Origin: a virus
Lineage: Duplodnaviria; Heunggongvirae; Uroviricota; Caudoviricetes
Length of the DNA: 13,508 bases
Reading direction: 5' to 3' (one strand)
IMG/VR virus record: IMGVR_UViG_2537562192_000015
The position numbers are program-made. Numbering within the stretch: the stretch's first letter is position 1; each line of letters opens with the position of its first letter. Of the stretch, positions 3,001-6,000 are shown piece by piece.

Positions 3001-6000
3001 AAGCCGTGACGGGCTTAAAGCACTGGGCGCAGAACGTCACCATTACATCAACCTTGCCCGCACTGAAAATCGCTTCGCTGGGCTGGCTGTAGGCGAGCGT
3101 CAGAGCGCGGGAGAGCAACAGTTAGGCTTACTGATAGTCATGCAGAAAATCGAGCAGGCAGCATTTAACGAGGCGATACAGAACGGCATGACACCGACCG
3201 AAGCGGTGCGGGAAGTTGCTCGCCGCATGGAGACGTTCGCCAGCCTGATGACGTCAGCGCCGTCTCTGGGGGGGAATCATGCGTAATTATGATTTCGCCG
3301 CAATTATTCCGGTATCACCTGGCATTATTGGCAGATATGAAACGGGCGTTGTCAGCGCACGCGCACTGCATAAAGCGCTCGGTGTAGGCCGTGATTTCAC
3401 CACCTGGATTAAAGGGCGTATTGAGGAATACGGATTTAAAAAAGGTGTGGATTTTGAGGCTGTAGAAAATTTGTACTTTGATTCCCCGAAACGGGGGAGC
3501 CAAAGTGTAAATATTGAACAGTTTGATTCTGGCTGGCACGTCGCCTGGGAGAACGTGAACATGCCTGACATCCGCAACGCTGCCGCCCTGTACATCGATA
3601 CTGCGGATAAGTTCGCACAGGTGAGCATCAACCATGCTGATTACATGCGCCATATCGTGAGCCATTTCGCCGCTGAGCGCATGAAACACGTTAAGCATTA
3701 TCAGAAGGAGGCTTTATCAAATTATCGCGCTGGTGGCCCTGTACGGCGTGAATATCCGCATGATGCAGGAATGGCAGGCAAAACAAAGGCGACCACGAAA
3801 GGGTCGCCAGTGGAGATAAAGGAAATCAAGCGCATCACCAACTATGCCATGAGTGTAGCTGGTGGACAAGGCTATCAGCCAGGCGGTCGGTTTTTAGTGG
3901 CTTTTAACCGCCGTGGGTATTTCTCGACAAAATCTTCAAGGGCAAATCGTTTTTGTGGGTGTTTTTTCACTCCGGGAAGAGGCGTTAACTCTTCGGGTTC
4001 TGATATCTCTTTAGCGCGTTTCAGTTCCAGTTGGCGCTCAAGTATGCGGTGCAAAAGCTGTCTTCGTTGTTCGGCAAAAATATCTGTAATGGATTGGTAC
4101 TTTTTGTTCATGCTGCTGCCCTGTAAAGCAATGCGCCGTAGTACCTCACACCACGGCGCTGATAGTGATTATTCTGATTCTTTGGCCTTGCGGCGCTGGC
4201 GGCGTTTGATCTCGCCTCGCATGGCTGTAACGATAAATTGCGCAGTGCTCTCGCCTGTTTCTTTTACTTGCTCCATAGCCTCAACAACTTCATGCGGGGC
4301 GCGAGCCTGTAATTTCTGTGATTTGTTATTGATATGGTCTCTTTCCATTTCTGCTTCCCTTTGTGATTACTGGAATCCAGTATACACGAAAAAGACCAAA
4401 ACAAAACGCTTGAAGTGGATTCCACTTAGTGATTATACTGGAATCCAGCTGAGTGTTTATCACTCAATGCAAACGAGGCTGAAAAGGATTGCCGTCCTTT
4501 CGCAGCCTCTGACCACCAACGATAGCAAGAGTATCGAGGCAGCTATGAGAAATCATATCACACACCCGCAAGGGCGGGACTCGCACAACCTGAATAAATT
4601 CACCTGGCGCTTTATGCAGTGCCTGACAGGCAGCATTGCAATATTCACCGTTACCGCTGCCACTGAGCGCGAAGCACGCGCCCGGCTGCCGCACGCACAT
4701 CTGATTTTTGTCGCCCGTATCCGTCAGGAGGCATCACATGGATAAAAACATGTTGATCGCCTCTTCTTTCGGGCTGTATGATGCCGAAGTCGCCCACATG
4801 GCGACCGGGTTTAGCAGCCTGAATCAGATAGCGGACAGCCGCTTACATTCCGATATGCGGTTTTTTTGTGTCCGTAAGCCTACCCATACCCGCATTATGG
4901 CGGGGCGTAACGGGGGAGCCTTTGCGCTCGCTGGTTCCTATCTGGCCAGTCTGCTAACCCCGTTACGTCTCGCCACCATGTTTAGCAGCGTAGTAGCGAG
5001 ACTCCTTAATCAACAGATAGGAGCCTTTCACATGGCTGTATCCGCACGCACATCTGATTTTTGTCGCCCGTATCCGTCAGGAGGTGACTCATGCTTAAAA
5101 CCTTCCGCGTCTTTTCCCGTGCTGTTAACAAGCGCGGCTATACCGTTGGCATCACGCAGAACGTGAAGGCCGAAAACGTCCAGGCTGCAATCAGCACAGT
5201 AATTAACAAATCAGCTAAAGCCGGTTTATCCGGCGTAATTATCCACGCAGTGACATGTATTCAGGATGAGGAGTAATTCATGTGTGATTTTTCCGATATG
5301 ACTGTTGATGAAGCAGCAAAAAGCGCAATGCAGGCAGAACTTATTTGTTCTCTGATGATGGGTAACACAGGTGAAATGACTGAGGGTGAGATTGAGTCAT
5401 TGCTCGCCCTGATTAAGCAGCTTACAGGTAAGGCAGGTAGCTGGCTGATTGCTGCATCGGGTGATGATGCAATATGCGTCAATGACTGAATCCTTTGTTG
5501 TTCTGAATATCATGAAATTAAGGGGGTGCAGTAATGCAGCAAATAACACTGGCAGAAGCCTCACTGCAAGCGCAACAGGTCGAAGTAATTAGCCGCATGA
5601 TTGAACGCAACCACGAAGAAATAGACGACCATGACCTTTCTGTTATTGCAGGACTTATCAAACAACTTTCCAGCAATGTGGCGGTGTGGTTAATGACGGA
5701 GGAAGAAAAACGCGGCGAACAATAACGGCTAAAAATAAACGGGAAATAAATATTAAGACGACTCCTTCAGGAGATTAATTCAATAGCATCAAAAAATACT
5801 GGCTTAACTGCCAGTAGCAAAACTCACCCCGAATTTATGTGCGGGGATATTTACCGCAATGAATACGGTAGCCACATGACGATGATCAGCAGAGGTAAGA
5901 AATGAAAAGCGCACCGAACTTAAAAAAACAGCCTCGAGGGAAAAAACACGCCGATACGGAAGTGATTATTTTCGCTGGCAGTGATGCGTGGGCGCACGCG

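Follow-up and report, generated by a model that had tools for sequence, protein, structure and literature searches.

The locus studied here raises the question of what is achieved by a very short minus-strand gene and by the three palindromes that separate it from a divergently oriented replication operon. The window, i.e. the whole stretch of DNA that was analysed, comprises 13,508 bases of an E. coli phage satellite sequence. The best explanation, to which we assign a probability of about 0.72, is that the gene encodes a ribbon-helix-helix (RHH) DNA-binding protein, as judged from its predicted fold, which would act as a local, autoregulated and box-specific repressor of the replication operon. 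Gene and boxes form a compact cassette, consisting of the gene for a 59-residue protein and three 11-bp boxes at the promoter of the replication operon, with 196 bp between the ATG of the RHH gene (4348) and the ATG of the Icd-like ORF (4545). The genes and open frames of this region are the following.

4169..4348, minus strand (start 4348, end 4169): RHH protein gene, 59 residues, YlcI/YnfO family (NF041551, phrog_949, RefSeq WP_000439004.1)
4133..4159, minus strand: terminator-like hairpin immediately 3' of the RHH stop codon, with conserved counterparts in L210 and L211, two relatives from E. coli
3875..4111, minus strand: basic ORF of 78 residues downstream of the RHH gene, a candidate gene without annotation in the identical RefSeq record
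3279..4745, plus strand: open frame of 488 codons on the opposite strand, with an AntA N-terminal domain at its start and the Icd-like ORF at its end
4545..4745, plus strand: Icd-like ORF, 66 residues, first gene of the controlled operon (NCBIfam NF033153, E 7.5e-14)

The minus-strand ORF, described in the sequence-only reading as divergent from the Icd-like operon, is a real and conserved gene. It had been treated as unannotated after being missed by the ORF track, but RefSeq does hold it as a "YlcI/YnfO family protein"; the track probably missed it because the 488-codon frame covers it in antisense. In the prototype satellite EcCICFT073, the RHH gene was seemingly added only at re-annotation. 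The protein (MERDHINNKSQKLQARAPHEVVEAMEQVKETGESTAQFIVTAMRGEIKRRQRRKAKESE) matches NCBIfam model NF041551 over residues 9–50 with 72.3 bits (cutoff 30; E 2.4e-20) as well as phrog_949, and its homologues form 108 clusters spread across the Enterobacterales. Its designation as RHH-like gains support from a glycine-first turn between the helices, as found in RHH proteins (G32-E33-S34-T35, with E33 invariant and G32 present in at least 90% of 42 sequences) and from the covariation of strand residues described below. The AF2 monomer model (pLDDT 85.5), in which an extended N-terminus precedes helices 19–28 and 35–58, may represent a fold of the RHH type. In contrast, no significant match to a curated RHH family or structure was obtained: Foldseek comparison of the AF2 monomer model with the PDB gave no useful match, a profile search of PDB sequences with the family found no RHH protein, and Pfam yielded only sub-threshold similarity to PSK_trans_fac (E 0.0096–0.024, in 10 of 42 members), CB_ParB_C and HicB. 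A tblastn search with the family against 50,697 phage records found nothing, suggesting that deposited phages lack the family, which would instead reside in satellites and prophage remnants. Literature searches on YlcI, YnfO and DUF3950, on RHH proteins combined with PICIs, and on Icd-like or C4 elements combined with satellites retrieved no functional study.

All three occurrences of the core TGGAWTCCA in the window, at 4371, 4416 and 4439, fall between the minus-strand gene and the Icd-like ORF, as had been claimed; 0.14 occurrences are expected in 13,508 bases, a count of three was reached in none of 200 dinucleotide-preserving shuffles, and no further copy is present elsewhere in the window. 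The sequence TACTGGAATCCAG occurs exactly twice, at 4368–4380 (where it is part of the extended palindrome TACTGGAATCCAGTA, 4368–4382) and at 4436–4448, and the related AGTGGATTCCACT is found at 4414–4426, within a 15-bp palindrome (AAGTGGATTCCACTT) that spans 4413–4427. The earlier proposal that each palindrome overlaps a -10-like hexamer holds for the two outer boxes (TATACT on the plus strand at 4434–4439, and on the minus strand at 4384–4379), whereas the middle box instead abuts a -35-like TTGAAG. The boxes and the core elements of the two predicted promoters are located as follows.

4438..4448, no strand: box 1 (O1), CTGGAATCCAG, overlapping the -10 and the expected start of P_div, the divergent promoter
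4415..4425, no strand: box 2 (O2), GTGGATTCCAC, in the P_div spacer and abutting the -35
4370..4380, no strand: box 3 (O3), CTGGAATCCAG, on the -10 and expected start site of the RHH promoter
4410..4415, plus strand: P_div -35, TTGAAG, facing the Icd-like/primase operon (promoter scan: TTGAAG-18-TATACT)
4434..4439, plus strand: P_div -10, TATACT (promoter scan and locus comparison)
4379..4384, minus strand: -10 (TATACT) of the putative proximal RHH promoter, with GTATACTG conserved in nearly all representative loci

Box 3 is a probable autoregulatory site, since it overlaps the -10 and expected start of the RHH promoter. No recognisable -35 was found for the RHH-sense promoter, which has a T-rich stretch upstream instead. 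A minus-strand TATAAT (4437–4432) overlaps the P_div -10 and is a possible distal RHH-sense promoter.

The same layout recurs in about 200 related loci (199) collected from genomes, metagenomes and IMG/VR, from each of which the boxes were extracted by anchoring on the conserved KS codon. Three 11-bp boxes of the form (G/C)TG-N5-CA(C/G) keep constant distances to the RHH ATG, with box 3 always at -32 to -22. Boxes 1 and 2 cover a conserved promoter toward the replication operon, TTGA(C/A)G-17/18-TATA(G/C)T (TTGACG-18-TATAGT in EcCICFT073), and the third overlaps the -10 of the RHH gene. The best-conserved element outside the boxes is a (G/T)TCAA that adjoins box 2. In other specificity classes box 1 is inverted or shifted by about one helical turn (the gap to box 2 being 11, 12, 14 or 24 bp), which suits a protein site rather than an RNA or promoter motif. 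Deviation from box 2 is more frequent for box 3 than for box 1. Such a placement over the core elements of two divergent promoters would fit repression combined with autoregulation.

The link between protein and boxes is provided by covariation. All covariation figures given here are raw values over loci, ignoring kinship among them. The 9-nt cores of the boxes differ at 0.42 positions within a locus and at 0.18 positions between loci that share the same beta-strand, versus 3.27 positions between loci with different beta-strands. Adjusted mutual information with box class is highest for residue 14 (0.86) and residue 12 (0.74), which share the i, i+2 face of the beta-strand with the invariant S10 and R16. 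For example, the strand KSQKLQARA accompanies the TGGAWTCCA type, and KSQALKARV the GTGTGGCCCAC type. Residues 12 and 14 are not fully decisive, as K12/Q14 is found with TGGAnTCCA but also with GTGTGCTCCAC, and K12/S14 accompanies two different boxes. Features were also compared by how well they predict that a pair of loci has the same box class (AUC). The RHH beta-strand scores 0.995, compared with 0.57 for the divergent-operon flank (first 500 nt), 0.57 for the downstream flank and 0.51 for AlpA; 115 pairs of loci have similar flanks but different boxes, and 98 pairs have at least 95% identical AlpA proteins but different boxes. As comparative evidence, this covariation argues strongly for binding of the boxes by the protein and for repression of both promoters. 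The palindromes are thus very probably operators of the 59-residue protein, as the sequence-only reading had proposed, since in about 200 loci the box sequence follows residues 12 and 14 and no other tested feature. Judged from these comparisons, the RHH protein is the specificity determinant, and protein and boxes together are a self-contained specificity (immunity-type) cassette of which at least 18 types can be distinguished.

The same data bear on the idea that the boxes are bound by another factor, with the RHH gene as a mere passenger. Short repeated boxes close to replication genes do look like iterons, and AlpA is a known activator of these elements (PMC6092414). Nevertheless, we regard this explanation as very improbable: the boxes follow RHH strand residues 12 and 14, and the window holds no further box. 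Primase iterons were rejected because a single RHH/box type can accompany either DUF927 primases or "DNA primase family" proteins. Sites for AlpA were rejected because of its low AUC for box class, and the low AUC of the divergent-operon flank led to the same verdict on sites for any protein, such as the Icd-like one, whose gene lies within these 500 nt. It is equally hard to maintain a type II toxin-antitoxin pair with the RHH protein as antitoxin, the boxes as its autoregulatory sites and the 78-residue downstream ORF as toxin. A small co-oriented ORF does follow the RHH gene in the window and in 64 of the 199 loci, and the weak PSK_trans_fac match points in the same direction. However, the ORF is missing from most loci and occurs across RHH types, independently of them (as the right-flank AUC indicates), it is separated from the RHH gene by the terminator-like hairpin, and it has no match to a toxin or defence family, or to any other entry, in Pfam, NCBIfam, PHROG and PADLOC. 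Moreover, an antitoxin operator has no need of boxes on the promoter of the opposite operon, where two of the three are located, and the pair was rejected.

A more serious rival, albeit still an unlikely one, is a lambda-like bistable switch in which the RHH protein is the sole lysogeny-type repressor and induction requires its inactivation by a helper factor, as for Stl in SaPIs. The sequence-only reading had suggested a master repressor comparable in role to Stl or CI, without taking this role as established, and the expected divergent layout with operators in a shared control region is indeed present: three operators, two on the "lytic" promoter and a weaker one on the repressor's own promoter. 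Specificity types are shuffled in the manner of immunity regions, and a global repressor is not known for Gram-negative PICIs (PMC6092414). In five genomes with co-resident cassettes, all 12 pairs are of different type and none of the same type, a result that is only suggestive of heteroimmunity since it is not significant (P 0.14 under the null). The role in induction, on the other hand, is not supported in this form. EcCICFT073 carries the cassette, yet over-expression of AlpA without a helper leads to its excision and runaway replication, and deletion of alpA blocks its transfer (PMC6092414), so that a cassette-bearing element is induced by AlpA alone. The cassette is absent from EcCIMP1, a related PICI that is functional, and is therefore not present in all functional members. 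Finally, a second immunity device, the C4 RNA module, is located in the same operon. The cassette is thus probably not the induction trigger; that trigger would be AlpA, whose co-directional transcripts may cross the cassette.

The operon that the RHH protein would control starts with a structured leader, followed by the Icd-like ORF and the RNA module.

4450..4544, plus strand: 5' leader of the divergent operon (fold z-score -2.2)
4450-4466, plus strand: leader hairpin
4476-4509, plus strand: conserved bipartite leader hairpin, followed by the tail CTGACCACCAA
4520-4539, plus strand: leader hairpin with the Shine-Dalgarno sequence
4776..4980, plus strand: RNA immunity module (Rfam)
4776-4825, plus strand: c4-a1b1 target-like element
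4789-4867, plus strand: isrK-like element with terminator
4893-4980, plus strand: C4 antisense RNA, a known immunity device

Compensatory changes were observed at 12 of 15 consensus pairs of the leader (28 loci), and a scan of the leader against Rfam gave no match. In the RNA module, RF01695 scores 72.9 bits, above its gathering threshold of 45, and RF03163 (29.7 bits) and RF01394 (35.4 bits) are below gathering. The O157:H7 equivalent of the Icd-like ORF is annotated as intact in RefSeq.

In the local repressor model, an RHH dimer would read the 11-bp box (G/C)TG-N5-CA(C/G), here CTGGAATCCAG or GTGGATTCCAC, through its two-stranded beta ribbon, using the invariant S10 and R16 together with the variable residues 12 and 14. 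Since box 1 sits on the -10/start of a near-consensus promoter and box 2 in its spacer, occupancy of the two should shut this promoter, which would drive expression of the Icd-like ORF, the C4 RNA, small ORFs and the primase. Box 3, on the -10/start of the protein's own promoter, is slightly off-consensus, suggesting negative autoregulation at higher protein levels. The likely job of the protein is to silence the internal replication promoter in the resident satellite.

How AlpA might overcome this repression is suggested by the 488-codon frame, which crosses the 78-residue ORF, the RHH gene and the operators in antisense. Over 3537–4544 it contains no stop codon, versus 19 and 22 stops in the other two frames, and it is kept stop-free family-wide, through the RHH gene and the operators. 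We tentatively consider a gene-within-gene arrangement, possible but at less than even odds, in which a long Bro-network ORF (from an AntA/Bro N-terminal domain to an Icd-like C-terminus), kept stop-free by selection, harbours the RHH gene, its operators and the internal promoter in antisense orientation, as a translation-protected read-through switch. AlpA-driven transcripts would be translated through the cassette and hence not be stopped by Rho; they may silence the convergent RHH gene and displace the repressor from its operators, and removal of the repressor would unlock the internal replication promoter. As each satellite would have its own operator specificity, co-resident satellites could remain mutually insulated.

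Among known systems, Mnt and Arc of phage P22 or the plasmid proteins CopG and omega are closer analogues of the proposed local repressor than Stl or CI. Mnt and Arc are small autoregulated RHH proteins from P22 immI, an accessory region for immunity with an antirepressor-type operon under its control. Their beta ribbon reads short operators that coincide with core elements of P_ant and P_mnt, two divergent promoters close to each other. The cassette resembles them in its small protein of predicted RHH type and in putative operators on core elements of two close divergent promoters. Mnt binds as a tetramer to a single 17-bp operator and Arc as a dimer of dimers to a single 21-bp operator, whereas the cassette has three 11-bp boxes that stand apart, with 23 and 45 bp between their centres; it also shows no detectable sequence relation or Pfam Arc/Mnt match, and the operon controlled here would be that for satellite replication. 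Omega of pSM19035 recognizes contiguous 7-bp heptads in 7–10 copies, and CopG of pMV158 binds one 13-bp element and shares an operon with repB. The repressor gene of the cassette, by comparison, forms a divergent monocistronic unit, and its boxes are not contiguous.

The controlled operon itself, with its Icd-like ORF, C4 RNA and a1b1/isrK-like targets, is similar to P1/P7 immI (c4 RNA - icd - ant) and to the P4 CI RNA system. To our knowledge, a protein repressor at the operon promoter is absent from the P1/P7 immI and P4 systems, and P4 P_LE is constitutive in the lysogen; unlike these, the satellite operon has an RHH/operator layer added upstream. Immunity RNAs of this kind have been reported in Gram-negative PICIs (PMC10111431). 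As with Stl of SaPIs and Rpr of Gram-positive PICIs, the repressor gene is divergent from the satellite excision/replication operon. Stl and Rpr, however, are of larger size and of the helix-turn-helix type; as far as is known, every member carries such a repressor, and proteins of the helper phage relieve it. In contrast, the cassette is optional, and the known trigger of a sister element is the activator AlpA (PMC6092414). Finally, the RHH protein falls under the same NCBIfam model, NF041551, as YlcI (DLP12) and YnfO (Qin) of E. coli K-12 (DUF3950), and has in common with them its small size and the pattern R-x-P...G-x-x-S/T...F/W-I/V...RRR. K-12 ylcI was dropped as a model, as it adjoins cos, with nohD in divergent orientation, and lacks an upstream array of three boxes.

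The cassette is found in many specificity types among enterobacterial satellites, including the prototype EcCICFT073, and can be detected in 546 of 5,426 complete E. coli genomes, O157:H7 among them; by comparison of loci, it has been reassorted between the backbones of PICIs, capsid-forming PICIs and helper-embedded PICIs. The analysis offers a candidate repressor for Gram-negative PICIs, which are common elements, with putative operators mapped to the base, and this candidate is present in the experimentally tractable EcCICFT073, for which a repressor was previously not known. It likewise offers a candidate function for the uncharacterised YlcI/YnfO protein family (phrog_949). Should the stop-free antisense frame prove functional, it would clearly exemplify selection for the use of both DNA strands in a regulatory switch. 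With at least 18 natural matched protein-operator pairs, an RHH recognition code may become readable and orthogonal repressors could be built, and the cassette provides a way to examine how satellites avoid cross-talk.

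The sequence-only reading had proposed a ribbon-helix-helix (RHH)-like open reading frame (ORF) of 59 residues with palindromic repeats upstream, and both were found where it had placed them; the ORF, which it noted as missed by the ORF track, is already present in RefSeq as 'YlcI/YnfO family protein' (WP_000439004.1). The sequence TGGAWTCCA occurs in the 13.5 kb only at 4371, 4416 and 4439 (expected number 0.14), three copies were reached in 0 of 200 shuffles, and TACTGGAATCCAG is present as an exact duplicate at positions 4368 and 4436. The features of this region are as follows.

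3279-4745, plus strand: open frame of 488 codons, its ATG overlapping the end of the Rha-family gene, with an AntA N-terminal domain
3875-4111, minus strand: unannotated basic ORF of 78 residues, downstream of the RHH gene and behind a conserved hairpin
4159-4133, minus strand: this hairpin, terminator-like and directly 3' of the RHH stop codon
4348-4169, minus strand: RHH gene
4370-4380, 4415-4425 and 4438-4448: putative 11-bp operators, boxes 3, 2 and 1, respectively
4450-4544, plus strand: structured 5' leader (5' hairpin, bipartite hairpin 4476-4509, tail, Shine-Dalgarno hairpin)
4776-4825, plus strand: a1b1-like target, below gathering score
4789-4867, plus strand: isrK-like terminator, below gathering score
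4893-4980, plus strand: C4 antisense RNA, 72.9 bits

An island identical to the window occurs in the chromosome of an E. coli STEC strain, where it is inserted beside a tRNA-Gly gene. The island starts with a tyrosine integrase, a hypothetical gene, AlpA (Pfam PF05930, E 2.7e-20), a Rha-family gene and an AntA fragment, continues on the minus strand with the 78-residue and RHH ORFs, and then on the plus strand with an Icd-like ORF, small ORFs, a DUF927 primase, SSB, and ProQ/FinO and PerC regulators. This gene order is the layout of Gram-negative phage-inducible chromosomal islands (PICIs), as previously described (PMC6092414, PMC11773190). On the right side, three PerC-family regulator genes are followed by an antiterminator Q family gene (from 9974-10267 onward; 15175-16861 in locus L001); the PerC-like gene of the PICI EcCIMP1 is reported to repress LEE1 (PMC11773190).

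The RHH protein scores 72.3 bits against NCBIfam NF041551 (cutoff 30) and also matches phrog_949, a PHROG family of uncharacterised function, while a Pfam search with the protein and its relatives gave no family above threshold. Homologues form 108 clusters, of 59–64 residues each, in genera including Escherichia, Salmonella, Klebsiella, Serratia, Yersinia, Xenorhabdus, Pantoea and Pectobacterium; no close relative is encoded by deposited phages. The family alignment is free of internal gaps, with invariant K9, S10, R16, E33, Q37, F38, I39 and E46-R50, and with two helices separated by a G-E-S-T turn. In an AlphaFold2 model (pLDDT 85.5), the N-terminus is extended and residues 19-28 and 35-58 are helical, and Foldseek and a PDB sequence-profile search gave no match; the predicted RHH fold is well supported but not proven. 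The family namesake, YlcI of K-12, differs in its setting, as its gene adjoins cos, is divergent from nohD and lacks the box array.

Loci were collected from reference genomes (46), metagenomes (80) and IMG/VR (80), and boxes could be extracted in 199, including the window. Nearly all share a common scaffold upstream of the RHH gene, which reads in the RHH sense ...TCAAG [GTG-N5-CAC] TATA-n8-AA [GTG-N5-CAC] (G/T)TCAA, followed by about 8 nt, a T-rich tract and GTATA[CTG-N5-CAC]C ... GGAG ... ATG, with 9-nt box cores beginning at -99/-98 (or -111), -76 and -31 relative to the RHH ATG. The scaffold is constant and the N5 core variable, the core changing jointly with the RHH beta strand (residues 9–17, by which RHH types are named); at least 18 box classes were found in total.

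RHH beta strands and associated box cores
KSQK(L/V/I)QARA: TGGAnTCCA
KS(K/R)KLEARV: GTGTCAGCCAC
KSQKMSARV: CTGGCACCCAC
KSQQLNARF: GTGAATCGCAC
KSQMTTVRI: GTGAAATACAC
KSQLFTVRV: GTGAAACACAC
KSQALKARV, KSQSLKSRV: GTGTGGCCCAC
KSQSVTARI: GTGTCTTACAC
KSQTIAARV: GTGTTGAACAC
KSTQIASRV: GTGCTAACCAC

The perfect palindromes noted from the sequence alone represent a special case, that of the K12/Q14 class; in most box classes a palindromic GTG...CAC frame encloses an asymmetric core. Boxes within a locus differ by a mean of 0.42 positions over the 9-nt core (111 of 158 comparisons identical), and boxes of different loci by 3.27 positions when the strands differ and 0.18 when they are the same. Box 1 is sometimes in the opposite orientation to boxes 2 and 3, and its distance to box 2 varies (11, 12, 14 or 24 bp); such changes are tolerable in the site of a dimeric protein but not in a motif of an RNA or promoter.

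All statistics relating box class to the beta strand, the flanks and AlpA were taken without phylogeny correction. Adjusted mutual information (AMI) with box class was maximal at RHH residue 14 (0.86), followed by residue 12 (0.74), and was lower for residue 5 of the N-terminal arm (0.60) and residue 17 (0.53). Together with the invariant S10 and R16, residues 12 and 14 form the alternating face of the beta strand. As a predictor that two loci have equal box class, strand residues 9–17 reached an AUC of 0.995, and residues 12 and 14 alone 0.988. Rival determinants were rejected, as the AUC was only 0.57 for both the divergent-operon flank (500 nt) and the flank on the downstream side of the RHH gene (400 nt), and 0.51 for AlpA identity. 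The argument is carried by the contrasts between columns within one protein and between the RHH gene and its flanks, and we estimate the probability that the RHH protein binds the boxes at roughly 85%.

Boxes differed in 115 pairs of loci with similar operon flanks and in 98 pairs with AlpA at least 95% identical, and 420 pairs shared a box with unrelated flanks. The RHH type of the window occurs there with the DUF927 primase. In an O157:H7 island (NZ_CP040572.1 1833757-1843105), inside a prophage terminase large-subunit gene, this type (98% identical) is instead accompanied by a 'DNA primase family' protein that is unrelated to the DUF927 primase. Type KSQALKARV likewise occurs with both primase kinds, and KSQMTTVRI is found alongside a RepA helicase in an island of the capsid-forming kind. 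This decoupling from flanks, AlpA and primase indicates that the protein and its boxes move jointly as a cassette that is shuffled among backbones, like the immunity regions of lambdoid phages. The O157:H7 island differs from that of the window in its integrase as well as in its primase, and it has a fusion gene for a ClpP-like prohead protease and major capsid protein.

Consensus scanning identified a plus-strand promoter, TTGAAG(4410)-18-TATACT(4439), and a minus-strand promoter-like site, TAAACA-16-TATAAT (4459..4432), with three such sites in the kilobase around the cassette versus 0.8 expected. Toward the primase operon the conserved elements are TTGA(C/A)G, 17/18 nt and TATA(G/C)T, which in EcCICFT073, the prototype Gram-negative PICI, read TTGACG-18-TATAGT. 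Box 2, which includes the final -35 base, occupies the spacer of this outward promoter, and box 1 begins within the -10 and spans the expected start site; RNA polymerase is therefore predicted to be excluded when either is occupied. On the RHH strand, the TATACT of the nearly invariant GTATACTG shares two bases with box 3, which should therefore cover the expected RHH start site; relative to this site, box 2 and box 1 are centred at about -48 and -71. No -35 of the RHH promoter was recognisable. Box 3 has more mismatches to box 2 than has box 1 (0.67 versus 0.31; 19 loci versus 5; Wilcoxon p 0.0016). The arrangement is like lambda OR logic, or like the P22 Mnt/Arc region, in that the outward promoter has the strong sites and the promoter of the repressor itself a weaker one. 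Centre-to-centre distances of 23 and 45 bp between boxes make Arc-type side-by-side dimer contacts unlikely. Repression of the outward promoter by the RHH protein, with autoregulation, is probable.

In the leader of the controlled operon, a conserved structured RNA, compensatory changes affect 12 of 15 consensus pairs of the bipartite hairpin (28 loci), and the 3' part consists of a nearly invariant UCUAACCA-type tail and a hairpin holding the Shine-Dalgarno sequence; an Rfam scan of the leader matched no family. Downstream follow the Icd-like ORF, the a1b1-like target, the isrK-like terminator and a full C4 antisense RNA, a module over which RefSeq annotates an 'Icd-like' pseudogene piece (4738-5049). 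It is the same device as P1 immI and P4 CI RNA immunity. With boxes on the outward promoter, the replication genes would thus lie behind two layers, one of protein and operator and one of RNA. C4-type RNA immunity has previously been noted in Gram-negative PICIs (PMC10111431).

The RHH protein had been proposed as a master repressor comparable to Stl or CI. The divergent promoters with operator-like boxes agree with this. EcCICFT073 has the cassette (NC_004431.1 1380473-1380652, within the region 1380242-1381052; type KSQALKARV, boxes GTGTGGCCCAC twice and CTGTCCCCCAC), the genes of which bear late, re-annotation-series locus tags and were therefore probably missing from the annotation behind the original PICI study. 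However, AlpA is the activator in EcCICFT073, its deletion blocks transfer, and its over-expression alone leads to excision and runaway replication (PMC6092414). Moreover, the functional PICI EcCIMP1 (NZ_CP139039.1 3565000-3586500) has AlpA, AntA, ash, Icd-like and DUF927 primase genes, all co-directional, but no RHH cassette was found at its locus, where antA, DUF4222, ash and icd are consecutive on one strand. The RHH protein is thus no universal master repressor, nor is its inactivation the known trigger, and a master-switch role is unlikely. In our reading it acts locally, repressing a promoter that is internal to the replication operon, and its operators are specific to each element.

The plus-strand frame 3279-4745 first passes antisense through the 78-residue ORF and the RHH gene, continues across the boxes and the leader, and finishes in-frame as the Icd-like ORF. 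Over 3537-4544 it has no stops, versus 19 and 22 in the other two frames. In 38 RHH genes (<80% DNA identity) this frame has 0.11 stops per gene versus 0.96 +/- 0.13 after synonymous-codon resampling, a depletion of about ninefold, and the remaining four alternative frames equal resampled values. Among 45 representative loci it stays open past the RHH start codon for a median of 385 nt (>100 nt in 89%), versus 3 and 47 nt for the other two frames. It is also open in four annotated E. coli islands with three RHH types: L210 (5466-6581, KSQMTTVRI), L211 (5416-6909, KSQALKARV), the O157:H7 island L212 (5836-6582, window type) and EcCICFT073 (L214, 8752-10053, KSQALKARV), where it begins just past alpA. 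Wobble positions of both strands coincide in this phase, the cheapest for dual use. The translation resembles low-complexity filler, and we suspect that ribosome passage is selected and not a protein product. Untranslated transcripts in P1 immI and P4 are Rho-terminated. The open frame could let AlpA-driven transcripts traverse the antisense cassette, and such read-through might disturb transcription of the RHH gene and extend into the replication genes. The frame may thus be kept open for read-through from the alpA side under ribosome protection, or it may encode a real overlapping protein of the Bro network.

Relatives of the 78-residue ORF, with the common motif FAL(E/D)xF/Y...K, occur in 64 of 199 loci irrespective of RHH type, and family searches with it gave no match. 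These findings, together with the intervening hairpin, argue against a toxin-antitoxin pair with the RHH gene.

Of the 5,426 complete genomes of E. coli, at least 546 have a cassette, in up to four places per genome. In Xenorhabdus innexi (L005, L010, L011 and L042) and four other genomes, with two to four co-resident cassettes each, types differed in 12 of 12 pairs, a bias that is not significant at this number (chance P 0.14) and hints at heteroimmunity. The mechanism, an RHH repressor acting on divergent promoters, is already known in kind; new are the setting, the range of matched specificities and the antisense embedding within an open frame. The observation is confirmed and extends to a widespread, formerly uncharacterised putative repressor-operator cassette of enterobacterial phage satellites.
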